From contig CACYZW010000019.1 of assembly GCA_902778995.1 (NCBI GenBank), positions 3,508 through 67,507 of the forward strand: a stretch of 64,000 bases of DNA, read 5' to 3'. Source of the DNA: an uncultured Eubacteriales bacterium. GTDB taxonomy: Bacteria > Bacillota > Clostridia > Christensenellales > Aristaeellaceae. Below, in pieces: positions 19,031-63,924 of the stretch. Within the stretch, counting starts at the first letter, position 1, and every line of letters starts with the position of its first letter. The translations under genes were made by a program, and so were the position numbers. Below the pieces are notes generated by a model. That model was given only the letters and a program-made list of their open reading frames with translations, had not been told where the DNA came from and searched no databases.

Positions 19031-19110
19031 GAGGAGACACCGCACAATCGAACAGTGCAGCGACGGGTTGAATTTCAGCCGTCACTGCACTGTTCGATTG
19101 TGCGATCTTC
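19031..19110. repeat. Family-1 intergenic palindromic element, copy A (symmetric-arm variant)
   Basis: GAGGAGACACCGCACAATCGAACAGTGCAGCGACGG-GTTGAATTTCAG-CCGTCACTGCACTGTTCGATTGTGCG. About 25-bp near-perfect arms. The left arm matches the termini of copies B, C, D and G. Confidence 0.8.
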
Positions 19111-19112
19111 TC

Positions 19113-21032
19113 TTAATAAATAATGATCACCAGGCTGCCGGGCGCGCAATGCTCGAACAGCCATTTGGCGCTCTTCACAGCAAGGCGCACGCAGCCGTGC
19201 GAAGCCTTGTTGCCCAGGCCATACAGCGAGCTCTCCCGGAGGGTATCGGTATTCCTTTCACTGTAGATGACCGAATGGAACATGATGTCTCCGTCGATCT
19301 CAAAGGAATACCGCGCCCAGCAGTCAAACTTTGAAAAGTGATGCCAGACGTTGACGGGCCCGCCGTCCAGATAGATGCCCCTGGGCGTGGTATTGCCGAG
19401 GCCCGTGGAGCAAAGGAAGGTGTGGATCAGCTCGTAATCGCCGGATTCCTGAAGCTCATACACGTAGACGCGCTGTTTGTCGATGCTCACCTCAACCCTG
19501 TAGGGCAACAGCTTGAAGGCCGCGTCCGGAGAAAACAGCCGGTTCAGCGTCGCGGTATCGGCGCCGCCGGTGGTCGGCAAGCCGTTCGCCGTTTGAAAAT
19601 CCTTCAGCGCGCTCTGCGTCTTTTCCCCAAAGGCGCCGTCTATATTGCGTTTGGAAAGGTAATATAGCGTGTGCAGCCGGCGCTGGACCCGCAAGACCAT
19701 GGCGGTATCGGTGACATTAAACGCCCCGGGCAGATCGTTGAGCAGGCCGTCCGAGAGCAGCTGCTGCGCCTCCACGGACAGCGCCTCGCCGTCATCATAG
19801 GCAAATACCCTCGGGCTGCCAATGGACGCGAGGTATTCGCGCAGCGTCTCGACGCCCTTGACAAGTCCCTTGCCGTATATGCCGTCGGGCATGCTGATGG
19901 TCAGGCCGCCGCAGACCAAAGCCTCCTGAACCTCGCGCACCGCGTCGCCCTCGTCGCCATAGGCGATGGGATGCAGCACGAAGTGCTCCGCCTCAGGCGC
20001 GTCCTGAGCGAACAGCGCGTCGATATACGCCCGGTCATACGCGCTTCCCTCAAGCCCGGCCGCCGTGCGAAACGCCTCTGCCGCGCTGACGGCGTAATCG
20101 TCCATGATGTCGTCGGGCTCGGCGTCCATATAGCCCAGACCGGCCAGGCGACGCTCGACGCGCTTGACCTCGTCGCCCTCGTCGCCGGCGTGAACGTCAT
20201 TCAGATAGGAGGAGTATTCCGGGTCATACAGCGCCAGCAGGGTGACGGCGGTCGCTTCGCCGGAAGGCTCGATGCCCAGAGCCTCCGCCTTGCCCTGCGC
20301 CACAAGATGATTTTGAAAGCGCTTCACCGCTGCGGCGGTCTTGACCCCGTAGCTGCCGTCCGCCTCGCCGCTGAGAAAGCCGTATTGAATCAGCTTCTGT
20401 TGAAGCTCGATGACCGCATCGCCCTTCGATCCCGCGCCCAGGCGCTTCGGCAAAGCCCGCGCGCCGTCGGAAAACAGCACCTCCCGCGTCGCGTCGTCGG
20501 GCACCCCTGTGGCCTCCAGGGCGTGTATGGCCTGGAATTGCCTCATCGCGGCCTGTGAACGCTCGCCAAACGCGCCGTCGGCGACGCCGCGCAGATAGCC
20601 CAGATCGATCAGCCGCTGTTGCAGCGCCTTGACATCCCCCACCTGATCGGCGATTCCGGAAAGCGCCTGCATCGTTTCGTCGTTCAGCTCGCCCGTCTCC
20701 TCCAGGCTGTTTGCGTTCTGAAAGCGCTTCAGGGCGGAGGCGGTCATCGGCCCGTAGAAGCCGTCCGCCGATCCATAAAGATAGCCCAGATCGATGAGCA
20801 TCTGCTGCGCCTGCCGGATCCGCTCCCTCTCCTGTTCCCCATTGTCCTCGGGGGTTGCTTCGCCTTCCACAGCCGCGCTGTCGTCGGTCACCGCCTGCGT
20901 TTGGGTCTGTTCCGTTTCCTGGGCTTCAACCGCGACATCGCCTGCCGTTGGAACCGCCGACTCCGCCACGCCGCCCGCCGTCACAACCGCAAGCGCGGCA
21001 ATTATTGAAATTGTTCTGAAACCATATTTCAT
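19113..21032 (-). CDS. L,D-transpeptidase (YkuD domain) with multiple PG_binding_1 repeats
   Basis: C-terminal YkuD motif GNKASHGCVRL. N-terminal signal peptide. Repeated LIDLGYL..ADG.FG..T..A...FQ units. Confidence 0.85.
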   Translation of the reverse strand: MKYGFRTISIIAALAVVTAGGVAESAVPTAGDVAVEAQETEQTQTQAVTDDSAAVEGEATPEDNGEQERERIRQAQQMLIDLGYLYGSADGFYGPMTASALKRFQNANSLEETGELNDETMQALSGIADQVGDVKALQQRLIDLGYLRGVADGAFGERSQAAMRQFQAIHALEATGVPDDATREVLFSDGARALPKRLGAGSKGDAVIELQQKLIQYGFLSGEADGSYGVKTAAAVKRFQNHLVAQGKAEALGIEPSGEATAVTLLALYDPEYSSYLNDVHAGDEGDEVKRVERRLAGLGYMDAEPDDIMDDYAVSAAEAFRTAAGLEGSAYDRAYIDALFAQDAPEAEHFVLHPIAYGDEGDAVREVQEALVCGGLTISMPDGIYGKGLVKGVETLREYLASIGSPRVFAYDDGEALSVEAQQLLSDGLLNDLPGAFNVTDTAMVLRVQRRLHTLYYLSKRNIDGAFGEKTQSALKDFQTANGLPTTGGADTATLNRLFSPDAAFKLLPYRVEVSIDKQRVYVYELQESGDYELIHTFLCSTGLGNTTPRGIYLDGGPVNVWHHFSKFDCWARYSFEIDGDIMFHSVIYSERNTDTLRESSLYGLGNKASHGCVRLAVKSAKWLFEHCAPGSLVIIIY

Positions 21033-21388
21033 GGATGTTACCCTCTGCCACTATATGTAAGTATTATAATAGTATTTCCTCATGTCAAAACCTTCAAGTC
21101 CAATACTGTTATGAATCGCACAATATTCTCAGGCACATGGGTTAAAACTCCATATCTGTGTCAAAATATAAATCCTCAGACATCGGGGCGAAACAAAAAG
21201 GCCTGTTTTGACTGTCGAAGGCGCGTTCTTTTTTACATTTCATGGCAAAATACAATAAAAAACCATGTCATTTCAGGCAAAATTTAGAATTAATATTTTT
21301 ACAGTAGACAGACGCCCAATCATTTGATACAATATGGAGCGATGGGGTATAGATTCACCCAACAAGTTTGAAAGGAGAAACACTTTCC

Positions 21389-22363: not shown

Positions 22364-22416
22364 CAAGCCCAATAAAAAAGGCCCGCAAAAGCGGGTCTTT
22401 TTTATTGGGCTTGTCA
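22361..22416. terminator. Bidirectional terminator; a 26-bp inverted repeat that includes both stop codons
   Basis: TGACAAGCCCAATAAAAAAGGCCCGC-AAAA-GCGGGTCTTTTTTATTGGGCTTGTCA (one mismatch). A/T runs flank the GC core on both strands. Confidence 0.8.
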
Positions 22417-23670: not shown

Positions 23671-23747
23671 ATTTTTCCCTCCTTGAAAATACACCGGCAT
23701 CCCGAAGAAAAGCCCGGACGCCGGTGTTATGTCTGTTATAACTGTTG

Positions 23748-24773: not shown

Positions 24774-24775
24774 GG

Positions 24776-25330
24776 TCAACCTCCGAATGTGTTCAGCGCG
24801 CCCTGACCCGTCACCTTGGCCACCAGGCCGCCCGGTATGCCGCTGATCAGGTCGTTGTAGGACGCCGCCAGCTTGCCATAATCGTCATACTTGATCATGT
24901 TGACGTTTTCCCAAAAGTTGTCGTAGGCAACCTTGAAATTGGTGAAGTCGTCGCCCTTGGCCGCCTTGAACATGGCGTCGTAGAGCTGATCCACCGCTGT
25001 TTTCAGCGCGGAAAAGGCTTCAGCGCGGGCGTTGGTATCCGTTTCAGACGCCACCCTTAGTCCCAACTGGGCCACGTTGTCGATCAGCGGGGATGCCTCC
25101 ATGTGCAGGCCGGCCTCCGACGCCATCAGGGCGGCGTTTTCAGCGGCGGAATCCAGATAGGCATCCACACTGTGGCGGGTGGACAGCGTTGGGTCTGCCC
25201 CGCGGTCATATACCTTCAATACCTTGCCCCGCTCCCGGGCCAGCCCCATGCCGCCCAGACCGAATATACTGACAATCACGCAGACCGCCAGCACCGCGAA
25301 GGCCACCTTTCTGTTTTCTGAAAACCGCAT
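24776..25330 (-). CDS. Hypothetical N-terminally anchored helical protein (occupies the position usually held by LemA next to TPM genes)
   Basis: One N-terminal TM helix (VAFAVLAVCVIVSIFGLGG). Translationally coupled to the TPM gene. I did not see a canonical LemA motif. Confidence 0.55.
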   Translation of the reverse strand: MRFSENRKVAFAVLAVCVIVSIFGLGGMGLARERGKVLKVYDRGADPTLSTRHSVDAYLDSAAENAALMASEAGLHMEASPLIDNVAQLGLRVASETDTNARAEAFSALKTAVDQLYDAMFKAAKGDDFTNFKVAYDNFWENVNMIKYDDYGKLAASYNDLISGIPGGLVAKVTGQGALNTFGG

Positions 25331-25374
25331 GTCGAACACTTCCTTCCCGCGCGACAGGGAGCGCTGAAATTATC

Positions 25375-25543
25375 TTAAGGAAAAACCGCATAATCGAATC
25401 GTGCAGTAACGGGATGAATTTTCGTCAGATGCAAACTGCAAAAACCGCAGGTTACCTGGATTGGTAATCAAGGGTTTTGCAGGCAGCAGGCGGCTGAAAT
25501 TCAGCCGTTCATACACCATGCACATTGTGCGGTGTTTCCTTAA
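25375..25543. repeat. Family-1 element, copy B (about 169 bp, full length)
   Basis: Termini TTAAGGAAAAACCGCATAATCGAATCGTGCAG ... CATTGTGCGGTGTTTCCTTAA. Contains CGGCTGAAATTCAGCCG. Both ends align over about 60 nt with the reverse complement of copy C1. Confidence 0.85.
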
Positions 25544-25726: not shown

Positions 25727-26905
25727 TTACTTCATCTCCATGATCTTGGCCTTCAGCTCGCCCTCGATGGTGGCCAGCTCCTGCTCGGCCTGGCGACGCT
25801 TTTCCTTGCCCTGCTTCTGAATCTCCATAACCTCGTCCATCGTGTCGATGAGCAGCTTGTTGGTGTGCTTGAGGGTTTCGATATCCACCATGCCGCGCTC
25901 GGCCTCCTTGGCGGTCTCCACCGTGGCCATGTGCAGCTTTTCGGCGTTCTTGGTCAGCAGGTCGTTGGTCAGGTCGGTCACCGCCCGCTGGGCCTTCATG
26001 GCGTTCTCGGTGTGGGCCAGGCCCAGTGCCAGCACCATCTGGCTCTTCCAAAGCGGAATGGTGTTGACCAGGGATGTCTGGATCTTCTCGGCCATGATCT
26101 GGTTGCTGGACTGGATCAGGCGAATCTGGGGCGCCATCTGGATGGAGATGTTGCGGGTCAGCTCCAGGTCGTACAGCTTCTTTTCAAAGCGATCGGCCTT
26201 GTCCGCAAGGTCCTTCGCAAACTGGGCGTCCTCGGGCAGACCGGAGGCCGCGGCCTTGTCGCGGGCCTGCTGAACCTCGTTGGCGCGGAAAGATTCCAGG
26301 CGCTTCTTGCCGGCCACGATGTACATGGACAGCTCCTTGAAGTACACCAGGTTCTGGTCGTACAGCTTGTCCAGCATGGCGATGTCCTTGAGCAGCTGGA
26401 TCTGATGCTGTTCGAGGCCCGCGACGATCTTGTTCACGTTGACCTCGGTGTGGTCGTACTTGGCCTTCATCAGCTCCAGCTTGTTCACCTGCTTCTTGAA
26501 CAGGCCGAACAGACCGCCCTTCTCCTCCTCGTCGGCATCGAAGCTCTTCAGCTCCATAACCAGGTTGGCGATCATATTGCCGACCTCGTCCAGATCCTTG
26601 GTCTGAACGTTCTTCAGGGCCGCGTCGGAGAACTGGGAGATGTTCTGCTGAGCCGCCGCGCCGTAGGAGAACACCAGATTGCTATCGCGCACGTCGATCT
26701 TCTGGGAGAAGTCGTCGATCATCTTCTGTTCCTCTTCGGTAAAGCTCTGCATGTCCAGCGTGGCCTGCTGGACCTCCTTCTTCGCCTCGACCTCAGCCTT
26801 TTCCAGGGCCGCAGTAGCCTGCGTGGCCGCCTGAACGGCGCTCTCCAGCTCCTTCTTGTCCTCGTCCTCGAAGGGTTCAAGGGTCAGCTTGATTTCGTCT
26901 GCCAT
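25727..26905 (-). CDS. telA: TelA / toxic anion resistance family protein
   Basis: 392-aa coiled-coil protein with a TelA-like pattern (FSYGAAAQQNISQFSD...LVNTIPLWKSQMVLALGL...). Lies downstream of xpaC, as in Bacillus. Confidence 0.85.
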   Translation of the reverse strand: MADEIKLTLEPFEDEDKKELESAVQAATQATAALEKAEVEAKKEVQQATLDMQSFTEEEQKMIDDFSQKIDVRDSNLVFSYGAAAQQNISQFSDAALKNVQTKDLDEVGNMIANLVMELKSFDADEEEKGGLFGLFKKQVNKLELMKAKYDHTEVNVNKIVAGLEQHQIQLLKDIAMLDKLYDQNLVYFKELSMYIVAGKKRLESFRANEVQQARDKAAASGLPEDAQFAKDLADKADRFEKKLYDLELTRNISIQMAPQIRLIQSSNQIMAEKIQTSLVNTIPLWKSQMVLALGLAHTENAMKAQRAVTDLTNDLLTKNAEKLHMATVETAKEAERGMVDIETLKHTNKLLIDTMDEVMEIQKQGKEKRRQAEQELATIEGELKAKIMEMK

Positions 26906-41408: not shown

Positions 41409-41482
41409 CATGGCAGCGGTGGCGTGAACGCCACCGCTGCACAGGATGTTGACAAAGTCAACAGGCTGCAGGCCGCTGCCAT
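41409..41482. repeat. M2 module repeat (hairpin plus CAGGATGTTGACAAAGTCAACAGGCTGCAGGCCGCTG), bounded by CATGGCAGCGG / CCGCTGCCATG
   Basis: The same 37-nt core recurs inside element D (about 47170-47215) and, interrupted, at 56581-56790. Confidence 0.75.
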
Positions 41483-41490: not shown

Positions 41491-42432
41491 TCATTCCTCC
41501 AGCGCCGCCTCGAGCATGGTCAGCGTACCCGCCTCGGCATCAACGGCACAGCGCACGCCCAGCGGCACCGTGATCTTGTACTCCGTATGCCCGATGGACA
41601 TATTCGCCAGCACGGGCTTCCCGGCGGGCACGATGATGTCCCTTATGATGTCCTCCAGGTGCAGCGCGTAGCGCTCGTACTCCTCGATGCAGTTGGTAAA
41701 GCCGCCCAGCACCACGCCGACGCACTGGTCAAACAGCCCGGCCAGGCGGATCTGGGTCAGCATGGAATCCAGCCGGTAGATGTATTCGTCCACGTCCTCC
41801 AGCAGCAGCACCTTGCCCTCGGCGTTCAGCGCGTAGGGCGTGCCGCAGGCGGAGGCGATCAGCGTCAGGTTGCCGCCCACCAGCTGTCCCTCGCAGCGTC
41901 CGGGGACGATGCACTGGGGCTCAATGTCCGGTGGGTTTTCCAGCCGGCCCAGCGGCTCGGTGCTGGTCAGCGCGCGCAGCATGCTTTCACGGTTGAAATC
42001 GTTGAACTCCATCCACGCCCTGTCCGGCATCGGGCCGTGGATGGTCACCATTCCCACCTTCTGGTGTATGGCCGTGTGCAGCGCCGTGATGTCCGAATAG
42101 CCGAGAACGATCTTCGGATTGGCGCGAATCACGTCGAAATCCACATAATCCAGCATCCGCGCCACGCCATAGCCCCCGCGCATGCAGACCACCGCGTCCA
42201 CCCGGTCGTCCCGGAACATCTGGTTCAGGCCCCGCGCCCGCGATACGTCCGTACCGGAGAGATAGCCGTACTCCTCCCGACAGCTGTCGGCAATGACGAC
42301 CTTGTAGCCCAGCGCGTAAATGGACGCCAGCATCTTTTCAAAGCGGGTCTCCGGCTCGTGCAGCGCGCCGGATATGCCCACCAGCCCGATGGTATCTCCC
42401 CTGCGCAGCGGCTTGGGTTTCAGCATGTTCAT
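41491..42432 (-). CDS. LD-carboxypeptidase (peptidase S66, LdcA/MccF-like)
   Basis: LRRGDTIGLVGISG, GYSDITALH (nucleophile Ser), a C-terminal E..GHT pattern (IGHTEYK). The start may be the second ATG (42426). Confidence 0.85.
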   Translation of the reverse strand: MNMLKPKPLRRGDTIGLVGISGALHEPETRFEKMLASIYALGYKVVIADSCREEYGYLSGTDVSRARGLNQMFRDDRVDAVVCMRGGYGVARMLDYVDFDVIRANPKIVLGYSDITALHTAIHQKVGMVTIHGPMPDRAWMEFNDFNRESMLRALTSTEPLGRLENPPDIEPQCIVPGRCEGQLVGGNLTLIASACGTPYALNAEGKVLLLEDVDEYIYRLDSMLTQIRLAGLFDQCVGVVLGGFTNCIEEYERYALHLEDIIRDIIVPAGKPVLANMSIGHTEYKITVPLGVRCAVDAEAGTLTMLEAALEE

Positions 42433-42507
42433 CTTCCTCTTTCACCTGCTCAATCAAGAATGATATATATCGGCGACTGTCCGGTCTGCGACAGGATGGC
42501 CGCTCGA

Positions 42508-42668
42508 TTAAGGAAATACCGCACAATGCTCATGGCGCATTAACGGCTGAATTTCAGCCGCCTGCTGCCTGCTGATTTCTTGACTTGCCGCCAGCAAGCC
42601 TTCGAAGTTTGCAATCGACTAAAATTCATCTCGTTACTGCACGACTCGATTATGCGGTATTTCCTTAA
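42508..42668. repeat. Family-1 element, copy C1 (about 161 bp, inverted relative to copy B)
   Basis: TTAAGGAAATACCGCACAATGCTCATGGCGCATTAACGGCTGAATTTCAGCCGCCTGCTGCC ... CGTTACTGCACGACTCGATTATGCGGTATTTCCTTAA. Confidence 0.85.
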
Positions 42669-42723
42669 GGAAACGCCGTACACGGCGCATCGACGGCTGA
42701 ATTTCAGCCGTCCGCCGCCTGCA
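42665..42723. repeat. Family-1 half element, copy C2, abutting C1 through a shared TTAA
   Basis: TTAAGGAAACGCCGTACACGGCGCATCGACGGCTGAATTTCAGCCGTCCGCCGCCTGC, which aligns with the first approximately 60 nt of C1. Confidence 0.75.
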
Positions 42724-42745
42724 AATGCCCTGCCTTGCCACCGTC

Positions 42746-43867
42746 TCACACGGACGCGGGCATTTCGCCCCGAACATATACGCGGGGCACGCGGCGGCCG
42801 ATGCGACAAAGGGCCTCGTTGTGGTGGACGCCCGTCCAGGCGCAGTACTGCTTCAGGGAGATGCCGTCCCCCAGCAGCGTCACCGCATCTCCGGGGCGAA
42901 CCCCGGGGATGTCCGTCACGTCCACGGTCATCTGGTCCATGCACGTCAGCCCCGCCACGGGCGCGCGCCGGCCGCGTATACAGACCTCCCCGACGCTGTT
43001 CACCCGGGGATAGCCGTCCGCGAAGCCGGCGGACAGCGTGGCGATGACGCTGTCGCGCCGAAGCGGATGGGTCTCGTCGTAGCCCAGGTATTCCCCCTGG
43101 GCCACAGAGCGCACCTGAACCACCCGGGTCATGAGGCGAACGCATGGGCGGCATTCCCCGTTCGCGTTGGGATACCGGTTGGGAACCACGCCGAAGAGCC
43201 ACGCCCCCGCGCGCACCGCGTCGAAATGCCACTGTGGATGGCGCACCATGCCGATACTGTCGCAGGCGTGCAGCAGGCCGCAATCCCTGCCCGCGCGCCT
43301 TGTCGCATCCGCAACCCGCTTGAAGCGTTCGATCTGCGCCGCGTCCGCCTCGGCGTCCCGCAGCGCCAGGTGGGTGAACAGGCCCTCCACCCGCACGTGG
43401 GGCAGCGCGAACGCCGCAAGGATGCCGTCCATGTCCCCGGGGTCGAAGCCCAGCCGGTGCAGGCCGGTGTCCAGCTTGACGTGTGCCCGGGCATCCCTGC
43501 CGACGCGCTCCGCCGCGGCGTTCAGCAGCCGCGCCTGTTCGATGTCGTATACAGTGGCGATCATGCCCGCGCGGACGGCTTCCTCCATCTGCGGCGGCGC
43601 GATCATGCCCAGCACCAATACGTCGCCGCCGCAGGCCCGGATGACCTCCATCGCCTCGTTCGGCTCCGCCACGGCAAACAGCCGCGCGCCCAGGTCGCAG
43701 AGCGTCCGGGAGAGCGCCGCCGCGCCGAGGCCGTAGGCGTTTGCCTTCAACACGGGAATGATCTGTACGCCCCCGCCGCAAATCGCCTGCGCCGAGCGAT
43801 AGTTCCACGCGACGCCGTCCAGGTCGATCTCCATCCAGCAGCGGGACCGGGCCAGTTCATCTGTCAT
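42746..43867 (-). CDS. alr: Alanine racemase
   Basis: VLKANAYGLG (PLP Lys), a THLA-type motif (FTHLALRD), YGYDE-like (YLGYDET), GYADGYPR-like (GFADGYPR), VCMDQ-like (LTCMDQMTV). Confidence 0.9.
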   Translation of the reverse strand: MTDELARSRCWMEIDLDGVAWNYRSAQAICGGGVQIIPVLKANAYGLGAAALSRTLCDLGARLFAVAEPNEAMEVIRACGGDVLVLGMIAPPQMEEAVRAGMIATVYDIEQARLLNAAAERVGRDARAHVKLDTGLHRLGFDPGDMDGILAAFALPHVRVEGLFTHLALRDAEADAAQIERFKRVADATRRAGRDCGLLHACDSIGMVRHPQWHFDAVRAGAWLFGVVPNRYPNANGECRPCVRLMTRVVQVRSVAQGEYLGYDETHPLRRDSVIATLSAGFADGYPRVNSVGEVCIRGRRAPVAGLTCMDQMTVDVTDIPGVRPGDAVTLLGDGISLKQYCAWTGVHHNEALCRIGRRVPRVYVRGEMPASV

Positions 43868-43873
43868 GGATAA

Positions 43874-44638
43874 TCACTCCTCCCACCCGCCAAACGCGCA
43901 GGCCTTCGCCGTATCCTGTATGAGCCGCTCGAAGGCCGGCACCTCCACATTGTTGGAAAGCATGCAGATGACGAAGGGCTTTTCAGCGTAGACGATGCCC
44001 GCGTCATGGGTGATGTTATCGTCCTCGCCGGTCTTGTGGGCGCAACGTATATTCTGGCTGTGCAGGAAGAAGGGCAGCTTGCCGTTCAGCTGCTGGTTCA
44101 ACAGTATATCGACCATGCGCCTGTCCGTCTCCCCGCCCAGCAGCGTTCCCGTCGCCATGCGCTCCAACAGCATGCCGATGCCCCTGGCCGTGACGGTATT
44201 CTGTATGCCGCGCCTGGACATCGCCATATCGAACAGCCTGCGCCGCAGAGCCACGCCGGGGATGCCCAGCGCCTCCATCGTGCGGTTCACATGCGCCGGG
44301 GTCAGGCGGTCGATCAGCATGTTGGCAGCTGTGTTGTCGCTGACGATGATCATCAACGTGATCAGGTCCAGCAGCGTCACCTGCAGGCCGTCGTGCAAGT
44401 ACGTCAGTGCGCCGCAGGAGGGCATCTTCTCCTCCGGCTTCACGACGATCGCTTCATTCAGGTCGAGCGCTCCCTCAAGGCTGTCCCGAAAGGCGGTTAC
44501 CATGACGGGCAGCTTGATGACGCTGGCCGCGATCAGGGGCAGATCCGGGTTGTGGGTCCACACCCGATCCTCCCCCAGTACGCGATAGTAAAAGCCCACG
44601 TCGCCGGGAAAGCGCCTGATGGCTTCGAGGTATTTCAA
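43874..44638 (-). CDS. Class-A beta-lactamase-fold serine hydrolase with no signal peptide
   Basis: S-x-x-K (ASVIK), SDN (IVSDNTAAN), KTG (AHKTGED). No N-terminal hydrophobic leader. TTG start 10 nt after AGGAGG. Its stop lies 7 nt upstream of the alr start. Confidence 0.75.
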   Translation of the reverse strand: MKYLEAIRRFPGDVGFYYRVLGEDRVWTHNPDLPLIAASVIKLPVMVTAFRDSLEGALDLNEAIVVKPEEKMPSCGALTYLHDGLQVTLLDLITLMIIVSDNTAANMLIDRLTPAHVNRTMEALGIPGVALRRRLFDMAMSRRGIQNTVTARGIGMLLERMATGTLLGGETDRRMVDILLNQQLNGKLPFFLHSQNIRCAHKTGEDDNITHDAGIVYAEKPFVICMLSNNVEVPAFERLIQDTAKACAFGGWEE

Positions 44639-44901
44639 GGCCGCTTCGCCTCCTGCCCTTGTAATGTCCTGCCGTGATGGAGCATGCGATGCTTGCGCCG
44701 GAAAATGCCCGAGGGGCCGGCGTACATGCCGCCGCCCCCCCCATTGACAACGGAAACCCTGAGCCGTCGCCTGAGCCGCACCCTATGTATCACAGAGACG
44801 ATTATACCACATCGCCGTCAACAGCGTCAATCCATTTCAGCGGCTTTAAGGGCGCGTCACACCGCTTTGACCGCTTCCTCCTTCACCGCCTTCCATCGCA
44901 T

Positions 44902-45408
44902 TCATTCATCCGAATTTCCCATTGTATGGAAATTGTCGAGCAGTATCCGCCAGCCTTCGCGGATATCCGGGTCAGCGCTCAAATCGGCCATGTCCTCCGC
45001 CCCGGCGTCCTCGAACTGTCCCGCCACCGAGGCGTAGTCTGAAAAGGCCTCGTCGATGAGCGCGGCAAAGCCGGGGATATTCCCGTCAAAGCGCCCCTGC
45101 GCGTCGGCGTCCAGGGCTTCCCAGGCGGACAGCATGTTCGCGCGCAGGGCAGGCACGTCGCTTTCCCAGAGCCGGTATGCTTCCACAAAGCGCAGCAATC
45201 CCGCCGCTGCCGACGCCTGCTTCAGGGAGCACCCCGCAGTGCCCTCCTCCCACTGCGCCACCGGTTCAAAGAACAGCGCCCTGATCTCATCGGCTTCGGG
45301 GACCGATACCGCCGGGGCTTCAGGGGACAATTCGCTCCCGCGCTCCGCCAGACACGCTGCGGTCAGAAGCAGGGATATCGCAATCAGTATAAAAGCTATT
45401 TTTTTCAT
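44902..45408 (-). CDS. Hypothetical lipoprotein
   Basis: Lipobox LLTAAC. GGGAGGA RBS 7 nt upstream of the ATG at 45408. Confidence 0.65.
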   Translation of the reverse strand: MKKIAFILIAISLLLTAACLAERGSELSPEAPAVSVPEADEIRALFFEPVAQWEEGTAGCSLKQASAAAGLLRFVEAYRLWESDVPALRANMLSAWEALDADAQGRFDGNIPGFAALIDEAFSDYASVAGQFEDAGAEDMADLSADPDIREGWRILLDNFHTMGNSDE

Positions 45409-45645
45409 GGTCAAATCCTCCCTGGCATTTTTTTATTCTTAGACGTTTTTTCGCGCCTTTTGTTCCCCCGGAATGAATGACAGGGGTTGTATCGTCTTAT
45501 AATAAATGGTATAATCGCTATGGAAACATCGCACAGTGCCCATGGCGCTGCTACGCGGCGCGATTATGCGTCGTTTCCTGTACACAGGCAACCGCACGCT
45601 TCCCGACCGGCCTCTATTCCAATCCGCAAAGCAGGTGTGATACGT

Positions 45646-46533
45646 ATGGCAAGCCCCACGCAATTTGAACAGTATGTCGCCGATGAAGTCAAGAAATACA
45701 AGGACGTGTATTTTCCGCTGCGCTCTTCGCTGCTCAGACGCCTGCTGGTCAGGCGCTGCCCCCTGACGAAGATGCATCCCAACCCCGATGACGAATTCTG
45801 CATACCCAAGATCGGGCCGAGCAACCGGATCATCTCGGAGTACATGGAGGCCTTTCGCAATGCCGAAAAAGTCGGCAACGAATTCTGCGAGGAGCCCGTG
45901 CAGATCGAAAGGATTTACCCGGACGGCTACATGATCCTCAACGGCCATCACCGGTGGGCGGCAGCCATGAGGCTCGGCTACAAAAAAATGCCGGTAAAAA
46001 TCCTCAACCTGACGCAGGAGGCCGACGTAAAAAAGAGCCTGTCCCGCACCGGCAATACCAAGCGGGCCACCCTCGACCTGGACGAGGTCGTGTTCCTGTC
46101 CGACAGCGGCATGGCCGCCGAAAAGCCGCTGCCCTTCCCCTTCAACAAGCTGTACAAGGAACCCCTGCGGCGCGGCATCCCCGCCCTGTTCAACTTCCTT
46201 TCGGCGAACGGATACGACGTGTGGGTCTACACCAACAACTACTATTCCTTTGAACACATCCGGTCGTATTTTCGGTTTTATCACGCCAGGGTCGCCGGCG
46301 TCATCACCGGCCTTTCCAGAAAGACGAAGGCCGGCGGCAGCATGAAGAAGAAGATCGACGACATGATGGCGAGCAAATACCTGACGACGCTTCACATCGA
46401 CAACGACGCGCTCTTGCGCACGTCCCGCAATTCCAAGCAGTTCGACGAGTACAGCCTGGACGGCGTATCGGACTGGACGCAGCAGATCGTGGACATTGTC
46501 AAGAGGATCGAGAAAGATGAAAGACAAGCATAG
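45646..46533 (+). CDS. ParB/Srx-like N-terminal domain fused to a HAD-like phosphatase domain
   Basis: YMILNGHHRWAAAMRLGYKKMPVKI (ParBc-type GxxR motif), then TLDLDEVVF (DxDxV motif I), VWVYTNN, HIDND. Confidence 0.65.
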   Translation: MASPTQFEQYVADEVKKYKDVYFPLRSSLLRRLLVRRCPLTKMHPNPDDEFCIPKIGPSNRIISEYMEAFRNAEKVGNEFCEEPVQIERIYPDGYMILNGHHRWAAAMRLGYKKMPVKILNLTQEADVKKSLSRTGNTKRATLDLDEVVFLSDSGMAAEKPLPFPFNKLYKEPLRRGIPALFNFLSANGYDVWVYTNNYYSFEHIRSYFRFYHARVAGVITGLSRKTKAGGSMKKKIDDMMASKYLTTLHIDNDALLRTSRNSKQFDEYSLDGVSDWTQQIVDIVKRIEKDERQA

Positions 46534-47041
46534 CGCCGGGAGGATGCGCGTCTCCTTCGACCTGGACGAGGTGCTCTTCGTATCGCCCGAAACCCACAAG
46601 ACCGAGCCCCCGCCGGTATTTCCCCTGAACAACCTGTTCAGGGAGCGGCTTCGGCTGGGCACGCCGGAGCTCATCAACGGGCTGCAAAAGATGGGCTATG
46701 AGGTTTGGATCTACACATCCTCCTTTCGATCCGAGCGCTACATCAAGACCCTTTTCAGGCTATACGGCGTCCACTTCGACGGCATCGTCAACGCCACGCG
46801 CCATCTGAAGGAGGTTCAGGGCAACCGCAGCTACAGGCTGCCCCAGAAGATGCCGAACCATTACAAGATCTCGCTGCACGTTGACGACGAATCGGTCATC
46901 TGCGCCTCTGGTCGGCAGTACGGCTTTCGCACCTACCAGCTCGACGCCCAGGACGACGATTGGAAGGAAAAGATCATACAGCGCGCCGAGGAAATCAAGC
47001 GCATGGATCATCCGGAGCTGCTTGCGCAGGAGGATGAATGA
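46517..47041 (+). CDS. HAD-like phosphatase, paralog of the C-terminal domain of the upstream gene
   Basis: SFDLDEVLF, VWIYTSS, HVDDE. Collinear similarity with residues from about 150 to the end of the preceding protein. Overlaps its stop codon. Confidence 0.65.
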   Translation: MKDKHSAGRMRVSFDLDEVLFVSPETHKTEPPPVFPLNNLFRERLRLGTPELINGLQKMGYEVWIYTSSFRSERYIKTLFRLYGVHFDGIVNATRHLKEVQGNRSYRLPQKMPNHYKISLHVDDESVICASGRQYGFRTYQLDAQDDDWKEKIIQRAEEIKRMDHPELLAQEDE

Positions 47042-47115
47042 TGCCAAAAGGCATTTGTCCGGGGCCCCTTGAATTGGCTCCGCGAGCCGGCTTCCCCTGA
47101 TGGCGAGCCGGGGAA

Positions 47116-47392
47116 TTAAGGAAACGCCGCATAATCGAACGGTACAGCAGCAGAACGTCCTTCAGCCGTTTGCTGCTGTCAGGATGTTGACAAAGTCAAC
47201 AGACTGCAGGCCGCTGAAAAAGGCTGCAAGGCAAGGCGGCGAGCCTGCAAAAAAGGGAGTTTACCCCGTCGTAAATCTTCCGCTCTTCTTTCGGAAGGAT
47301 TTTCTGCGTTTGCGGCCTTTGTCAGCGGTCTGACTGCAGCAGAACGGCCTTCAGCCGTCTGCTGCTTTATCCATTGTGCGGCGTTTCTTTGG
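47116..47392. repeat. Family-1-related composite element, copy D (about 277 bp), carrying the M2 module
   Basis: Left end TTAAGGAAACGCCGCATAATCGAACGG. Right end CCATTGTGCGGCGTTTCTTTGG, which is its inverted complement. Internal hairpins plus CAGGATGTTGACAAAGTCAACAGACTGCAGGCCGCTG. Confidence 0.8.
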
Positions 47393-47550
47393 CATTCAAT
47401 CTGAAAATGGTGTAGACGGGAACGGCCTGTTTGTGCTATAATGTTAATTGTTGGCGTATACGGCAGGATTGCGTGGGTTTGATTCCCACAACATCCATCG
47501 TTTTTTTGAAGCCTGCCCGTCCTTCACCCAACCGAAAAGGATGCGATGCC

Positions 47551-50496: not shown

Positions 50497-51156
50497 TCAA
50501 CACCCCTGCTCGCAGAACGTCGCCATCTCCCTTTCCAGCAGTCGATACACATTGGCCACCAGATACCCGTCCGCGACGGCGTGATTCAGCCGAACGGTGA
50601 CGGGCATCATCAGCCTGCCGCCCTCCTCGCGGTAGCGACCCCAGTTTACGATTGGTATATAATAGGGATAGCCGTCGGGAAGCTCGATGTTCAGCGCGTC
50701 GTAGGAAAGCCAGGAGATATAGGAGGCATCGAACCAATTCGGATGGTTTGCCGCGTCAAGGGCATATCCCCCCGTCTCCTTCGCCCGCTCCAGGTCTTCC
50801 AGCGCATGCCTGTAGAACGTCCCGTAGTCGGCGTAATAGCAGGTATACACCGGCGTACAGGTCTCCGTCTCCTCGTCGAAAACATACTGCGTGGGATTGA
50901 TCACGTCATAGCAAATCAGCTGGTCGGTCTGCCACAGATAGCCCATCCGATAGTCGTCCCTCGAATTCAGAACCTTCGACAGCAGGTACAGGAAATTCAG
51001 ATAGAACTTCGTACCCGTTTTTCTCGAGCGCTCGACCAGCGCGGTCACGTCGATCCTCGCCGTCATGGAGGTCGAGCATTTGCAATCCTCCGTGAAGTGG
51101 CGGAACACACCCCGCCGATAGTAGGTATTCAAATCAACAATTCGGTAGTCGGCCAT
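50497..51156 (-). CDS. cat: Type-A chloramphenicol O-acetyltransferase (CAT) family protein
   Basis: 219 aa. NHAVADGY in the place of HHAVCDG, so the second (catalytic) His is retained. CAT-like N-terminus (DLNTYYRRGVFRHF). GGGGAGAAAAA RBS. Confidence 0.75.
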   Translation of the reverse strand: MADYRIVDLNTYYRRGVFRHFTEDCKCSTSMTARIDVTALVERSRKTGTKFYLNFLYLLSKVLNSRDDYRMGYLWQTDQLICYDVINPTQYVFDEETETCTPVYTCYYADYGTFYRHALEDLERAKETGGYALDAANHPNWFDASYISWLSYDALNIELPDGYPYYIPIVNWGRYREEGGRLMMPVTVRLNHAVADGYLVANVYRLLEREMATFCEQGC

Positions 51157-51221: not shown

Positions 51222-51317
51222 GGAAGCACCGCATGACCGCATCGTGCAGCAACGGGATGGATATTCATCGATTTCAAGCTGCAGATTCAGCAGGCCTGGC
51301 GGTTATGGTGTTTTTCC
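51222..51317. repeat. Family-1 element, degenerate copy E
   Basis: GGAAGCACCGCATGACCGCATCGTGCAGCAACGGGATGGATATTCATCG... ...GGTTATGGTGTTTTTCC. The left half aligns with the left half of copy B. Confidence 0.65.
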
Positions 51318-51383: not shown

Positions 51384-53639
51384 TCACGGCGTATAGATGT
51401 GGCTGATGGCGATGACCTTGCCGTTTTCGATGGTCGCCGTGGTATTGTACTGGTCAAAATCAGCGCCGTCGCCGGAATTGGTGATGGCCCCGACGATGTC
51501 CTTGCCCCGTATGATGAAGGGAATCTTCTTCGGGTCGGAGGCGTCGGTATACGTGGCGGATTCATCGACCACCAGCGTGGTGACGCCCTGCTCGGTGTAG
51601 GTCGCCAGATCGTCGTAGCCCGCCACGCGGTATGCGCCGGTATCCTCGTCCATCCACAGCACCACGCCGTTATCCCCGTCCAGGCCGCCGTTTATGGTCA
51701 CGGCACTGTCCCTTTCAACGGACTTAACCCCTATGGTCTCGCCCGCCACCAAGATGCTGTCGCCGACCTTCAGCGCGTCGATCTCCGCGGCGTCATACTG
51801 ATCCTGTGTGAAGACGTGCACGGCGTTCAGATAGATGCCCGACTTGCCGGCAAAGACGTCGCCCGGATCAAAGGCCACCGGCCACGTGCCGTCGGCCAGG
51901 CGGCTCACATCCACGTTGCGGGCGATGGGCGATACCGTTTTGACCTCGGGGACGCTCTCGTTTTCAAAGGAAACGGTGTTGCTCAGCCACTTTTCCCCGT
52001 TCTTGTCGTAAATCGCCAATGCCGCGAAATTCAGGTTGCCCTCGCCCCAATCCATGTCGACGGTAAAGCTGCCCGAGGCGCTGTTGGCCGCGTTTGCCCT
52101 CAGATCCACGCCGTCGAGCACCATGACCATGTCCTCCGATTGGAAATCGGGCTTCTCACCGAAGGTCAGCAGCAGCGCCGTAAAGGTGCAGCGCGCGCTG
52201 CCCAGGTTGGTCAGCGACCAGCTGTAGGTCACCATGCCACTGTCATCGGCCTTGTCTGCGGGCGTGACGGTCAGCGCAAGGTTCACGGGGCTATTGCCCT
52301 TGCTCTTGCTCTTGCCCTCGCCCTTCCATGCCTCGGCGGGCTGGATATCCAGCCAGGCGTTCACCACCGCGTCCACGTCGGCGGGGCGAATGACGCCGTC
52401 CTGCGCCACCAGCTCGTTATCCGCGGCGAAGGATGCAAAGGCCGTGTCCAGCTTTTTGCCGTAGATGCCGTCAAAGCCGCCCGCGTCGTAGCCCAGCTGC
52501 TTCATGATCTGCTGCATGGCGCGGATGTCCTCGCCCCGGCGGCCCCGCTCGAACCAGGGCTGCGGCTCGATGGCCTCGCGCTGCTCATAGCCGCAATCCC
52601 TGCAAACGCGAACGCGCTCGCCGGCCTCCGTGCGGGTCATCTCCTTCACGGTCTGCCAGGGGCCGAAATCATGGTTCAGGCGCTTGATGGTCTGGGGCCA
52701 GGCGACGCCGTCCGGCTCGAGGCCCTGATCCTTCTGGAACTGCGTCACCGCCTTCTCGGTGCCGCCGCCGTAGACGCCGTCCGCGCCGCCAGCATTCAGA
52801 TAGCCCTGATCCACCAGCTGCTGTTGCAGCGCGCGCACCTCGTCGCCCCGATCGTTCCTGCGCAGCGTGCCCTTGGGGTCAAAGCTCTCCTCGCCGCCGT
52901 TGTAGCCGCAGACCTTGCAGATCTTTGCCCGCACGCCCGCAGAGTGGTCGGTGGTCTTTTTGATGACCTTCCATTCAAACTCGTGGGGCAGCTTGTCCAG
53001 AACCTGTTCTTCCTCGTAGCCGCAAACCTTGCAGCGGCGCACGCGCAAGCCGGTCTCGGTGCAGGTGGGCTCCTCGGTCACCGTCCACTTGCCGAACTCG
53101 TGGTCCGCGTAGTAGTACTCCTCCTCCTCGTAGCCGCAGATCTTGCAGGTGCGAACCCGCTCGCCCTCCTCGACGCATGTGGCCTCCTCGACGATCTTCC
53201 ACTTGCCGAATTCATGCTCCAGCATCGGAAGCCGCTCCGTCTTCGTCGTGCCGCAGACCTTGCAGGTGTGCTCGCGCTCGCCTGTATGGGTGCAGGTAGG
53301 CTCGTCGATCACGCGCCATTTGCCCCACTGGTGCTTGCAGTACTTCGGGGGCATCTCGTCCGCCAGGTACTTGGTCAGCACCCAGGCCTCCATCTGCCCG
53401 CCGTGCTTGGTATCTTCCAACAGTATGGATGTATACTTGCTGCCCAAAAGCAAATTCCCGCTGAGCATGACCTTCGTGCCGCCCTTGAGCTTCTTGACGA
53501 CCTTCGAGTCCGGATCCGGTTCCTTGTGGGCTTCGAGAACGTCCTTGTTGACAAATTTCACGTACTCGCTGGCGCACGCCGGAATCGCCAGCGCAACCGC
53601 CAGCACCAGCGCCAGCATACACGCGATGAACCTCTTCAT
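51384..53639 (-). CDS. Secreted protein: SH3-like N-terminus, five Cys-containing repeats of about 35 aa, two PG_binding_1 domains, unknown C-terminal half
   Basis: Signal peptide. Repeats H-x-[FW]-G-x-W-x-[VI]-x2-E-x-T-C-x3-G-x-R-x-R-x-C-K-x-C-G. LQQQLVDQGYL..ADGVYG and MQQIMKQLGYD..FDGIYG units. GGGAGGAATGAGG RBS. Confidence 0.8.
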   Translation of the reverse strand: MKRFIACMLALVLAVALAIPACASEYVKFVNKDVLEAHKEPDPDSKVVKKLKGGTKVMLSGNLLLGSKYTSILLEDTKHGGQMEAWVLTKYLADEMPPKYCKHQWGKWRVIDEPTCTHTGEREHTCKVCGTTKTERLPMLEHEFGKWKIVEEATCVEEGERVRTCKICGYEEEEYYYADHEFGKWTVTEEPTCTETGLRVRRCKVCGYEEEQVLDKLPHEFEWKVIKKTTDHSAGVRAKICKVCGYNGGEESFDPKGTLRRNDRGDEVRALQQQLVDQGYLNAGGADGVYGGGTEKAVTQFQKDQGLEPDGVAWPQTIKRLNHDFGPWQTVKEMTRTEAGERVRVCRDCGYEQREAIEPQPWFERGRRGEDIRAMQQIMKQLGYDAGGFDGIYGKKLDTAFASFAADNELVAQDGVIRPADVDAVVNAWLDIQPAEAWKGEGKSKSKGNSPVNLALTVTPADKADDSGMVTYSWSLTNLGSARCTFTALLLTFGEKPDFQSEDMVMVLDGVDLRANAANSASGSFTVDMDWGEGNLNFAALAIYDKNGEKWLSNTVSFENESVPEVKTVSPIARNVDVSRLADGTWPVAFDPGDVFAGKSGIYLNAVHVFTQDQYDAAEIDALKVGDSILVAGETIGVKSVERDSAVTINGGLDGDNGVVLWMDEDTGAYRVAGYDDLATYTEQGVTTLVVDESATYTDASDPKKIPFIIRGKDIVGAITNSGDGADFDQYNTTATIENGKVIAISHIYTP

Positions 53640-55364: not shown

Positions 55365-55389
55365 CAGAAAGCGACAGGAGGTCTTTATC

Positions 55390-56834: not shown

Positions 56835-56842
56835 GCTTTCGA

Positions 56843-57397: not shown

Positions 57398-58543
<1,146 letters not shown>

Positions 58544-58806
58544 TTATTCAAGGGCCGTCCCAAAGCGACAGACACGATGCAAACAGTCCCTTTGCCGGCG
58601 GCTGTCAGTCGCCCTGAAGGCCACATGCGGCGGCATGAAGACGGCAAGCCCTGAGGCTTGCCGGTCGATCTTTGGCGGATTGCCGCTGTCCCCTTCCATC
58701 GGATCGGGACGCGGCGACGTCGCCGCTGTTATAACGGTCTTTTCTGCATTGTCTGCGCGTTACGGGAAAGCCCCGCAATTGGATACTCTGCTTATGAACG
58801 GTGATT

Positions 58807-59277: not shown

Positions 59278-59582
59278 GCTGAACCCTCCAGTGACTCAAC
59301 CGCATTTGTAGTTATGGTAATTCTACTGCACACCCCCTCAGAATTCAATACTTTTCAGCATATATGCACAGTTTTATCTAATTTCAGTCATAGATATACA
59401 CGCAGATTGCACAAATAGTAATATATTTGTAATGTTTTATAATATATCAGAAATATATACAGAACTATTTTGAAATATGTTTGCATGCTTCCATTTTTCC
59501 TGTCCCGACGCGACATCCTGGTCGTTTCAGTCTGCCCGGGCCAGAGGGTACACCGCCCAATCGAGTCGTGAAGCAATGACAA

Positions 59583-59645
59583 GCTGAAATTTTGGAGACT
59601 TGCCGGGGGGCAAATGCGCCATGAGCATTGTGCGGTATTTCCTTT
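59583..59645. repeat. Family-1 half element, copy F
   Basis: GCTGAAATTTTGG...GCGCCATGAGCATTGTGCGGTATTTCC matches the right halves of copies G and RC(C1). Confidence 0.65.
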
Positions 59646-59730
59646 ACAGTCCGTCCCTCAAAGTGGTATAATACAAAATGAACCGGCGATTCTCCGACGC
59701 CGACCTGCTTCTGAATTCTGGAGGATATCT

Positions 59731-61689: not shown

Positions 61690-61860
61690 TGTTCAACGCA
61701 TTGTATTTTCACACCGCATGGTCTATAATCCATCTGTGATAATGTGACAAATTTCGGTCGGACGCCACAAAACGGCCCTCCGCCCCGTCTATAATATGGC
61801 ATGCGCGCCAATATCAGGGAATGGGCGCGCCGTGAAACCGCGAAACCCCGGAGGCTTGTG

Positions 61861-63816
61861 ATGCGACACTTTAAAATCGGAGCGTTCACCCTTATGGCGG
61901 CAGGCATGTGCCTGCTACTGTGCGGCTGTGGCTCGATTGACGAAAGTATACTGGACACGCAGGCCAATACCTCTGTCGAAATCAACATGCCCTACGCCAC
62001 CGCCACGCCGCTGCCCGAGAACATGAGCGCGCCCGAGGCCATCGTCATCGACGCGGACGGCAACGTCACATTGAACGACACCTCCGTCATCGAGGGCGAT
62101 TTCCAGTCCCTCCGCGCCCGTGAGCAGCAGACCGAATACCGCAGCCTGAGCCTGGGCAACACGGGCATCGCCGTACAGGCGCTCCAGCTCCGCCTCAAGG
62201 ACCTGGGTTACTTCAGGGGCGACGTGTCCGGCCTGTTCGACGCCGACACCGAGGCCGCCGTGAAGCGCTTTGAGCAGACCTTCGGCACGATGCAGACCGG
62301 CGTCGCCACGCCGAAGCTCCAGTTGAAGCTCTTCGCCGCCACGGCTCCGGCCTACGGCACCGACGCCTACAACAACGCCGTGCTTTCCCAGTATTCCATT
62401 CTTCGACCCGGCACCGTGGGCAGCTCGGTCTACGCGCTTCAGCAGCGCCTGAAAAACCTGGATTACCCCATCACCGAGCTGACGGGCGTATTTGACGAAC
62501 AGACTGCCGAAGGCGTGCGCCTGTTCTACGCCGCCTACGGATTGCCCTCCAGCGACACGGCCAGCGTCGCCATGCAGCAGGAGCTGTACGCCGACACCGC
62601 GAAGCGCTATTCCCCGGAGATACAGGTCATTGCCACCCTCCCGCCCGGGGAGACGCAGCTGCAGCCCGTCCTCACCATTCCCGACGACGGCGAGATCGAC
62701 GAATCCACCGCCATCGCCCTGGGCAACTCCGGCATCCGGGTCTCCCAAATCCAGCAGCGCCTGATCGCGCTGGGGTACATGCCCGAGGGCAGCGACACCG
62801 GCGTATTCGACCAGGACACCCAGGAGGGCGTCAACCGCTTCCTCTCCGCCATAGGCCGCACGCCCAACGGCATGCTGACCCTTGACATGCAGAGTTTCCT
62901 GCTCTCCGACGGGGCCCCGGCCCTGGGCGGAAGCATCGACGCGACGGAATACAGGGACCTCGCTCCCGGCGACAGCGGCGACGCCGTGCTGAGCCTGCAG
63001 CGCAGGCTGGTGGAGCTGGGCTACGCCGACGGTACGCCCAACGGCAAATACGGCCCCGCCACCATCAGCGCCGTGATGTTCTACCAGCAGTGCAACGGCC
63101 TGGAGCAGGACGGACTGGCCACCGCATGGCTGCAATCGGTGCTGTTCAGCAACCAGGCGCTCACCTATGAGCAGACCCAGAGACTGGCGGAGGGCTTCGG
63201 CGGGCAGACGGAGGTCGAAGCGCAGTCCGAAGCGGACCAGGCGTTCGGCGAAAACGACGCGCCGACTGAGGAACCGGCGGAGGCATTGGAACCGGCGAAC
63301 GACTCCGACACGCTGTTCTTCAACCTTACGCCCGGTTCCACGGGCAGCGCGGTGACATCCCTGCAAAACCGGCTGGTGGAGCTGGGATATCTGGAAATGC
63401 CCAGTACGCTCTACGACGACGCCACCCGGGACGCGGTCATCGCCTTCCAGAACGCCATCGGCGTGGAGCCCACCGGGGAGGCCTCGGCATCCATGCAGCG
63501 CTACATCTACAGCAAGGCTGCCCCCGACGCCTCTGTGCGCTTCCAGGCCACCGGCGACGCCTATGCCACGCTGCAGTGGGGCGCCACCGGCGACGCGGTC
63601 ACGGCGCTGCAGCGCAGGCTCTGGCAGCTCGGCTTTTTGAAAAAGGAGGACGTGAAGGACAGCATCGGCACCTTCAACGACGCCACGCGCCAGGCCGTCA
63701 TCGACGCTCAGCTGAAGATGGAGTACGGCAGCGCGGACGGTGTTGCGGGCCCGGAATTTCAGAGCTTTCTGTTCTCCAGGTACGGAGAAAAGCTGAAAGG
63801 CAAAAAGAAAAAGTAA
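61861..63816 (+). CDS. Lipoprotein with about seven PG_binding_1 repeats
   Basis: Lipobox LLLCGC. Repeated LQ.RL..LGY.....G.FD..T..AV..FQ units. GGAGG RBS upstream of MRHFKIG. Confidence 0.8.
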   Translation: MRHFKIGAFTLMAAGMCLLLCGCGSIDESILDTQANTSVEINMPYATATPLPENMSAPEAIVIDADGNVTLNDTSVIEGDFQSLRAREQQTEYRSLSLGNTGIAVQALQLRLKDLGYFRGDVSGLFDADTEAAVKRFEQTFGTMQTGVATPKLQLKLFAATAPAYGTDAYNNAVLSQYSILRPGTVGSSVYALQQRLKNLDYPITELTGVFDEQTAEGVRLFYAAYGLPSSDTASVAMQQELYADTAKRYSPEIQVIATLPPGETQLQPVLTIPDDGEIDESTAIALGNSGIRVSQIQQRLIALGYMPEGSDTGVFDQDTQEGVNRFLSAIGRTPNGMLTLDMQSFLLSDGAPALGGSIDATEYRDLAPGDSGDAVLSLQRRLVELGYADGTPNGKYGPATISAVMFYQQCNGLEQDGLATAWLQSVLFSNQALTYEQTQRLAEGFGGQTEVEAQSEADQAFGENDAPTEEPAEALEPANDSDTLFFNLTPGSTGSAVTSLQNRLVELGYLEMPSTLYDDATRDAVIAFQNAIGVEPTGEASASMQRYIYSKAAPDASVRFQATGDAYATLQWGATGDAVTALQRRLWQLGFLKKEDVKDSIGTFNDATRQAVIDAQLKMEYGSADGVAGPEFQSFLFSRYGEKLKGKKKK

Positions 63817-63841
63817 ACGAACCGTTTGAGGGGTCGTCTCA

Positions 63842-63924
63842 GGGAAACACCGCGTGATCGAATCGTGCAGCAAGCGGCTGAAATTCAGCCGTTAACGCGC
63901 CATGAGCATCGTGCGGTGTTTCCC
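63842..63924. repeat. Family-1 element, copy G (minimal 83-bp form)
   Basis: GGGAAACACCGCGTGATCGAATCGTGCAGCAAG-CGGCTGAAATTCAGCCG-TTAACGCGCCATGAGCATCGTGCGGTGTTTCCC. This equals copy C1 or B without the internal section of about 75-85 bp. Confidence 0.85.

Follow-up and report, generated by a model that had tools for sequence, protein, structure and literature searches.

The 64-kb window analyzed here, that is, the whole stretch taken from contig CACYZW010000019.1 of an uncultured Eubacteriales bacterium, harbors nine copies of a family of short intergenic repeats. We conclude with high confidence that these repeats are miniature transposable elements with inverted repeats (MITEs) of the IS5 family of insertion sequences (ISs), probably mobilized by an IS5-type transposase encoded elsewhere. 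The copies belong to one repeat family, elements of this family are flanked by a 4-bp target-site duplication, an IS homologous to IS5 carries the same ends, and the element is absent from orthologous sites in related genomes.

A repeat family with common termini

The first-pass annotation of this DNA had reported the same sequence modules at eight loci. This was borne out by motif counts, self-BLAST and a window-independent profile, and a ninth copy (45522-45578) was added. The terminal motif GGAAAYRCCGCAY, with at most one mismatch, was found 15 times in the window against 0.94 matches expected from shuffled sequences, and none of 100 shuffles reached 15. Similarly, the core palindrome CGGCTGAAWTTCAGCCG occurred five times against 0.04 expected. 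A lone motif match at 32307 lies inside an open reading frame (ORF) without a partner and was taken as chance. Self-BLAST identified B and C1 as a single element of approximately 160 bp in opposite orientations, in agreement with the annotation that both orientations occur, with both ends 91 to 94% identical; G is a short form that retains both ends, and F and C2 share part of the element.

We then used an nhmmer profile trained on 10 elements from other genomes and on no window sequence. It recovered eight of the nine window copies with E values ranging from 3e-39 to 1.5e-3; C1, B, C2, G, and E gave the strongest matches, A, F, and the left end of D the weaker ones. Because the copies were found by a profile independent of the window, the similarity survives formal statistics; the collapse under such statistics that the annotation had envisaged did not occur. 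The copies are as follows (nhmmer E values in brackets; TIR, terminal inverted repeat).

A: 19033-19110, no strand assigned; short foldback of 78 bp, nearly perfect (1.8e-4)
B: 25375-25543, + strand; intact 161-bp MITE (25379-25539) with a TTAA/TTAA target-site duplication (1.9e-37, full model length)
C1: 42508-42668, - strand; intact 153-bp MITE (42512-42664), TTAA/TTAA (3.1e-39)
C2: 42665-42742, - strand; truncated half-element, profile positions 84-168 only (4.8e-9)
45522 copy: 45522-45578, - strand; 57-bp mini-element with both TIRs (GGAAACATCGCAC / GGAAACGACGCAT)
D: 47116-47392, + strand; 269-bp variant (47120-47388) with the family TIRs, TTAA on the left side only (left end, 5.6e-5)
E: 51222-51317, + strand; decayed 96-bp element, left half like B, right TIR degenerate (1.1e-6)
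F: 59546-59642, + strand; whole decayed short form of 97 bp (1.5e-3)
G: 63843-63923, + strand; short form of 81 bp that lacks the interior but keeps the core palindrome and both ends (8.9e-9)

Two of the window copies (B and C1) are thus intact, and seven are shortened or decayed. Their lengths range from 57 to 269 bp, and their density is nine copies in 45 kb, or about one per 5 kb over 19 to 64 kb. Positions 1-19000 carry no copy despite having intergenic spacers, all nine falling within the final 45 kb. A gene map based on GC content at third codon positions (GC3) placed every copy between genes, as the annotation had stated.

The 16-bp TIR GGAAAYRCCGCAYAAT stands at either end in five copies (B, C1, D, G, and the one at 45522) and was also present in about 50 elements elsewhere. 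The inverted termini described by the first-pass annotation were therefore real, except that the TT and AA counted among them are the duplicated target and lie outside the element. The small palindrome, which most copies were said to carry, is exact solely in B, C1, C2, and G; it is degenerate in A and missing from D, E, F, and the 45522 copy. Finally, copy F was confirmed, but its actual extent is 59546-59642 instead of 59583-59645, starting 37 bp further left.

The elements are flanked by a 4-bp target-site duplication

We compared the flanks of TIR-bounded elements in 100 loci from other genomes (loci are labeled L001 upward) and in the window, reading on each side the 4 bp outside GG...CC. 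The commonest flank was TTAA. Among the flank pairs that were not TTAA on both sides, 10 matched exactly when read as direct repeats, and no pair matched in inverted orientation; of the 10, nine were nonpalindromic (TTAG, CTAA, TTTA, TTAC, ATAG), and the tenth was TATA. Since the non-TTAA flanks match as direct repeats, they represent a 4-bp target-site duplication, and the elements were therefore inserted by transposition.

Furthermore, tandem elements had a single TTAA in common. This was the case for C2 and C1 in the window (42665-42668) and for pairs in L070 (6064-6067), L012 (3700-3703), and L056 (5060-5063). The sharing of a single TTAA by tandem copies suggests that the TTAA regenerated beside an existing element is a favored target at which insertion occurs repeatedly.

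The partner is an insertion sequence of the IS5 family

As noted in the first-pass annotation, no transposase gene was found in the window: tblastn with two IS5-type transposases returned only matches with E values above 1. Outside the window, two contigs of MAG SGB_3465 (L010 and L060) stop a few hundred bases inside a TIR and have in common a sequence coding for the C terminus of a DDE_Tnp_1 protein (Pfam E value, 1e-8). SGB_3465 has these IS end fragments and MITEs (L027, L046, L052, L063) together. Complete IS copies were reached via homologues of the SGB_3465 transposase fragment. One of them, at 2007-3153 of L111, is 1147 bp long, is bounded by the TIRs GGCAACACCGCACAAT and GGCAACACCGCATAAT, and has CTAA on both flanks. 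It encodes an overlapping orfA (DUF772, PF05598) and orfB (DDE_Tnp_1, PF01609), and both halves were assigned by NCBIfam to NF033581, the IS5 family transposase (186 bits against a cutoff of 140). After deletion of one A from a run of eight (A8), the L111 transposase is 321 amino acids (aa) long and 42% identical to the Escherichia coli IS5 transposase (E value, 6e-90).

In its reference copy, E. coli IS5 measures 1195 bp, with inverted repeats (IRs) GGAAGGTGCGAAC/TAAG and CTAA/CTAA flanks. Because lengths, IRs, and flanks correspond, the L111 IS and E. coli IS5 have the same geometry. The 4-bp duplication is CTAA in both copies examined, and in the comparison of E. coli IS5 with the partner IS the 16-bp IRs start with GGAA and the left and right IRs differ by C/T at position 13; read copy by copy, the L111 IRs begin with GGCAAC and those of the E. 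coli reference copy with GGAAGG. Both transposases are of the DUF772 plus DDE_Tnp_1 type.

The identity of the ends extends to the window itself. Indeed, the left IR of the L118 IS (GGAAATACCGCACAAT) is exactly the TIR of C1, and the right IR of the L117 IS (GGAAACACCGCACAAT) is exactly the right TIR of B. Based on the TIRs, the domains, and the homology to IS5, we consider the partner to be an IS5-group element and the window repeats to be, very probably, its MITEs. A nonautonomous mobile family of the MITE type was among the possibilities raised by the first-pass annotation, and the 4-bp duplication, the IS5-family partner with the same TIR, and the empty orthologous sites described below are direct evidence that it is correct.

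Three other leads were dropped. A recurrent transposase ORF beside unpaired TIRs was found in none of the first 100 loci, the IS having come via the contigs that end inside a TIR. L026 212-1919 and similar TIR pairs 1 to 4 kb apart, considered as long elements, had no duplication, and an ORF crosses the presumed TIR. Equating the MITE end that carries CATAAT with the right IR of the IS, and the CACAAT end with its left IR, holds for L111 and E. coli IS5, but it was abandoned because high-GC IS copies have CACAAT at both ends.

The A8 run (CTGAAAAAAAGGAAC; L111:2483-2497, and also in L112-L116) divides the IS5-type transposase of the widespread Clostridial IS copy into the two overlapping ORFs, whereas E. 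coli IS5 has a single ORF, as IS5-group elements normally do. Since 178 blocks of the searched collection contain the orfB product (P0023), the split is no one-off error. Slippage or a programmed frameshift may take place at the A8 run of this IS5-group element.

The family is widespread in Clostridia and absent from orthologous sites

A scan for AAGGAAAYRCCGCAYAAT with one genome per species gave at least 100 matches. Those listed came mostly from metagenome-assembled genomes (MAGs) of gut and rumen Clostridia, some with high GC content (RUG14340, RUG340, RUG11052, SGB_3465) and others with approximately 30 to 35% GC, and they included at least 17 contigs of MAG RUG14340. Several of these genomes contain copies that are 70 to 80% identical to the full B/C1 element. 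From other genomes, about 50 TIR-bounded elements of 78 to 289 bp were extracted and aligned. Some 20 terminal bases were kept throughout, across host genomes of 30 to 63% GC, and the interiors drifted with the GC content of the host. Conserved termini together with divergent interiors are a MITE-like pattern. None of 50 elements examined lay within a gene, and all orientations were represented; the elements thus survive between genes only, and the intergenic bias that the annotation had proposed to measure extends beyond the window.

Outside bacterial chromosomes, a TIR scan of viral contigs gave 10 isolated single matches and no pairs, and BLAST of 72,556 plasmids with the MITE end gave chance matches only (E values of 0.9 to 3). 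Three contigs of Undibacterium sp. Ren11W (L055, L066, L068) matched the search pattern and looked like a repeated IS end. All three stop near an identical TTGACG-N17-CATAAT, which resembles an rRNA promoter, and they were taken as chance; such sequences are a source of false positives in TIR-only scans.

Many MAG contigs stop at or just inside a TIR (L007, L049, L052, L054, L067, L010, L060, and others), which makes the MITE/IS family a frequent cause of assembly breaks. For the annotation of gut and rumen Clostridia, the family is therefore relevant in that it breaks assemblies, makes the spacers between genes longer, and is open to confusion with regulatory RNA.

The first-pass annotation had also suggested looking for presence or absence at orthologous loci, and the alr-ldcA spacer, which holds C1 and C2, allowed this between species. 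Synteny of alr and ldcA is conserved in five related genomes (L121-L125). The spacer is empty in four of them (18 to 21 bp in L122-L125), measures 109 bp with an unrelated hairpin in L121, and reaches 313 bp in the window, where it is filled by C2 and C1. The nearest alanine racemases are 76 to 80% identical and are labeled "MAG: Clostridia bacterium." For a 671-aa protein, a look-up by exact sequence returned no record.

A full-text literature search with the TIR strings and for IS5-derived MITEs in Clostridia retrieved no description of this sequence as an element, and a 2024 review of prokaryotic MITEs (PMC10969869) mentions no Clostridial or Firmicutes family. The family seems to be undescribed and widespread in gut and rumen Clostridia. 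In it, uncultured Firmicutes offer a MITE/IS5 pair that is defined as to TIR, target, and transposase, and this pair could be used to track strains or be developed into a transposition tool.

A model for mobilization and its weak points

By analogy with MITEPsy1 and ISPsy2 (PMC3189936), the transposase would act in trans on the MITEs by a cut-and-paste mechanism. The 16-bp inverted end would be the recognition site of the DDE transposase of the IS, which a full-length IS elsewhere in the genome or in the community would supply. The transposase would excise the MITE and insert it at a TTAA-like tetranucleotide (YTAR/NTAN), which would be duplicated on both sides. Fresh insertions would frequently hit the TTAA next to a copy already in place, as may have happened with C1 next to C2.

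Several observations weigh against mobilization of the window repeats by such an IS. First, A, the 45522 copy, E, F, and G now have no matching duplication, and D has TTAA on one side only; in these older window copies the duplication is lost by decay. Second, no full-length IS was seen within the window, current mobility in this organism is unproven, and a live IS in its genome is something that we infer. The nearest IS copies are frameshifted (L111), truncated (L117 and L118), or located at a contig end (L010 and L060). Third, the similarity between MITE and IS ends is weak beyond the terminal 20 bp or so, and hence the MITE did not arise from the ISs found by a simple, recent loss of internal sequence. 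Finally, the empty alr-ldcA sites belong to other species, as seen from the 76 to 80% identity of the alr protein, and not to conspecific strains; the sole contigs found from within the species, which come from a cattle rumen metagenome study, were 100% identical to the window.

The foldback interior shows a strand asymmetry

The family is biologically ordinary, apart from one loose end of modest interest. The elements of approximately 160 bp are long imperfect foldbacks. In a 17-element alignment, no double-sided changes were seen in the TIR helix, which is therefore constrained in sequence, and 15 pairs of the inner helices showed compensatory double changes, with 97% of the cells paired. 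Double-changed cells numbered 79, compared to 25 ± 4 in shuffles and 0 to 16 in slid controls. Furthermore, in 45 of 49 elements one strand folded better than the other, by a mean of 17 kcal/mol, and a count independent of the folding algorithm gave 275 G.T against 116 A.C oppositions, although the elements compared are related and such counts are not independent samples. The G.T intermediates occur on one particular strand, the one reading 5'-GGAAAYACCGCATAAT...ATTGTGCGGTRTTTCC-3'. This pattern looks like selection on one single strand, and we leave it as an unexplained feature.

Both the compensatory pairs and the strand preference would be expected if the elements were primarily structured RNA modules, such as transcript-end stabilizers, RNase targets, or small RNAs, for which mobility is a mere means of dispersal. 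We regard this as quite improbable. Relative to co-directional flanking genes, 10 elements were in sense and 12 in antisense orientation, so that no bias was apparent, and convergent as well as divergent spacers were occupied. No promoter-like site was found inside C1 or D and no terminator-like site on the elements scanned. Rfam, run over the whole window at the gathering threshold, reported two tRNAs and nothing else. When 42400-47500 was searched at E values of up to 1, it returned four subthreshold chance matches (E values of 0.25 to 0.74); one of them, a weak gntR-DTE match (21.9 bits against a gathering threshold of 63.6), overlaps D, and C1, C2, and the 45522 copy are free of matches. 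Additionally, the termini, which are the most conserved part, lack compensatory changes, the folding statistics come from related elements, and the duplication together with the IS partner accounts for the dispersal without any RNA function. A terminator, stabilizer, or small-RNA role, which the first-pass annotation had offered among the possible functions, is thus not upheld as the primary identity of the elements.

Another reading is that the elements, beyond being selfish MITEs, are under selection for a hairpin on one specific strand. We consider this unlikely as well, yet less far-fetched. If true, it would point to an RNA role, for instance as a small RNA released by processing, as an antisense RNA or decoy against the transposase message, or as an mRNA stability module, or alternatively to a single-stranded DNA hairpin step in mobilization, which to our knowledge is not described for IS5-family elements. 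Because the one-strand foldback shows compensatory changes, the elements may also act, secondarily, at the level of RNA or of single strands. The foldback is the sole aspect of this family that might teach why MITE interiors remain palindromic.

A likeness to repetitive extragenic palindromic (REP) sequences and bacterial interspersed mosaic elements (BIMEs) had been proposed in the first-pass annotation, and indeed the elements are intergenic, palindromic, and dense. REP units are palindromes of 20 to 40 bp without TIRs or duplication and are associated with a Y1 transposase, the REP-associated tyrosine transposase (RAYT); we know of no target duplications produced by REPs. The window copies are far longer than such units, carry 16-bp TIRs that recur identically in an IS5-family DDE element, and belong to a family with a 4-bp direct duplication. 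In agreement with the annotation, no RAYT was found among the subset of 24 window ORFs run against Pfam or NCBIfam. Since TIRs, duplication, and a DDE partner contradict the comparison, we give palindromic units handled by a RAYT next to no credence.

It is just as implausible that the repeats are immobile sequences fixed at each locus, be they conserved terminators of the ordinary sort or alike by chance: A and G do lie just after gene 3' ends and most copies are strong hairpins, but the motif, palindrome, and profile statistics exclude chance, the hairpins lack a U-tract tail and none was flagged by a terminator scan, copies occupy divergent promoter regions, the same element occurs at unrelated loci of many species, and it is missing from the orthologous alr-ldcA spacer.

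Comparison with known systems

The IS5-family MITEs of the window have their closest published analogue in MITEPsy1/ISPsy2 of Pseudomonas syringae. MITEPsy1 is a noncoding element of 100 nucleotides (nt) derived from the IS5-family ISPsy2 (about 1.19 kb); its TIRs of 16 to 18 nt start with GGAAGG and are nearly identical to those of ISPsy2, it duplicates 4 nt at CTAG or YTAA, and its transposition was shown experimentally (PMC3189936). Its distribution is narrow and its copies are few (PMC3189936). Both systems thus combine an IS5-derived MITE, a 4-nt duplication, and IS-like termini. They differ in host (Proteobacteria instead of Clostridia) and are unrelated in sequence past GGAA. Compared to MITEPsy1, the Clostridia family is found in many MAG species of 30 to 63% GC, comprises several length classes (57 to 289 bp), and has an interior that forms an extended foldback and shows compensatory changes; its mobility is putative. 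Unlike E. coli IS5, the window contains only noncoding derivatives.

Correia repeats (NEMIS, Neisseria) and repeats of the ERIC, RUP, and BOX types are similar to the Clostridia family in being abundant intergenic foldbacks of 100 to 160 bp with full-length and internally deleted forms, but their sequences are unrelated to it. The TIRs of Correia elements are 26 bp long and their duplication is TA. Repeats of all these types can fold as RNA when cotranscribed. We know of no partner transposase identified for Correia elements; in this they differ from the Clostridia family, which has an identified partner IS family. The comparison with these four types draws partly on a review (PMC10969869) and partly on established knowledge.

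Genomic context of the individual copies

Copy A has the left TIR GGAGACACCGCACAAT and a decayed right TIR (GAGAAGATCGCACAAT as the reverse complement) followed by TTAA. It is bordered on one side by tRNA-Leu with a terminator hairpin and on the other by the stop codon of the converging gene 19113-21032(-). B is bordered by the TelA gene (25727-26905, - strand) at its stop and by gene 24776-25339(-) at its start. In the alr-ldcA spacer, C2 abuts C1, and its end adjoins the alr stop codon.

The 45522 copy has no recognizable duplication and sits in the divergent promoter region of genes 44902-45414(-) and 45487-46533(+). A promoter scan found a site at 45563-45591 on the - strand, in which a flanking TTGCCT pairs with the CATAAT of the TIR at a spacing of 17 bp and which is directed through the copy toward gene 44902-45414(-). 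The TIR of this copy could give the -10 box to a hybrid promoter.

Copy D has just the termini in common with the other copies. Its interior is unrelated to theirs and had no match among the fetched loci. Direct repeats of 31 bp (47147-47177 and 47336-47366, 93.5% identical) are located just inside the inverted termini. Additionally, 37 bp of the interior (47180-47216; CAGGATGTTGACAAAGTCAACAG.CTGCAGGCCGCTG) are also found, with 97% identity, at 41442-41478, beside a strong, terminator-like hairpin in the spacer where the genes for ldcA and an M20 peptidase converge. This segment may represent a second small repeat family or a piece of a D-type element.

E is located between a CatA-like gene, 50497-51156(-), and gene 51384-53639(-). 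The right 32 bp of F are 100% identical to the end of C1, and its left TIR is decayed (GGGTACACCGCCCAAT). G directly follows the stop of gene 61801-63816(+). The genes 19113-21032, 51384-53639, and 61801-63816, beside A, E, and G, respectively, encode large proteins made of PG_binding_1 repeats. One of these three proteins has a YkuD L,D-transpeptidase domain, and a similar protein of 748 aa is encoded in the related genome L121.

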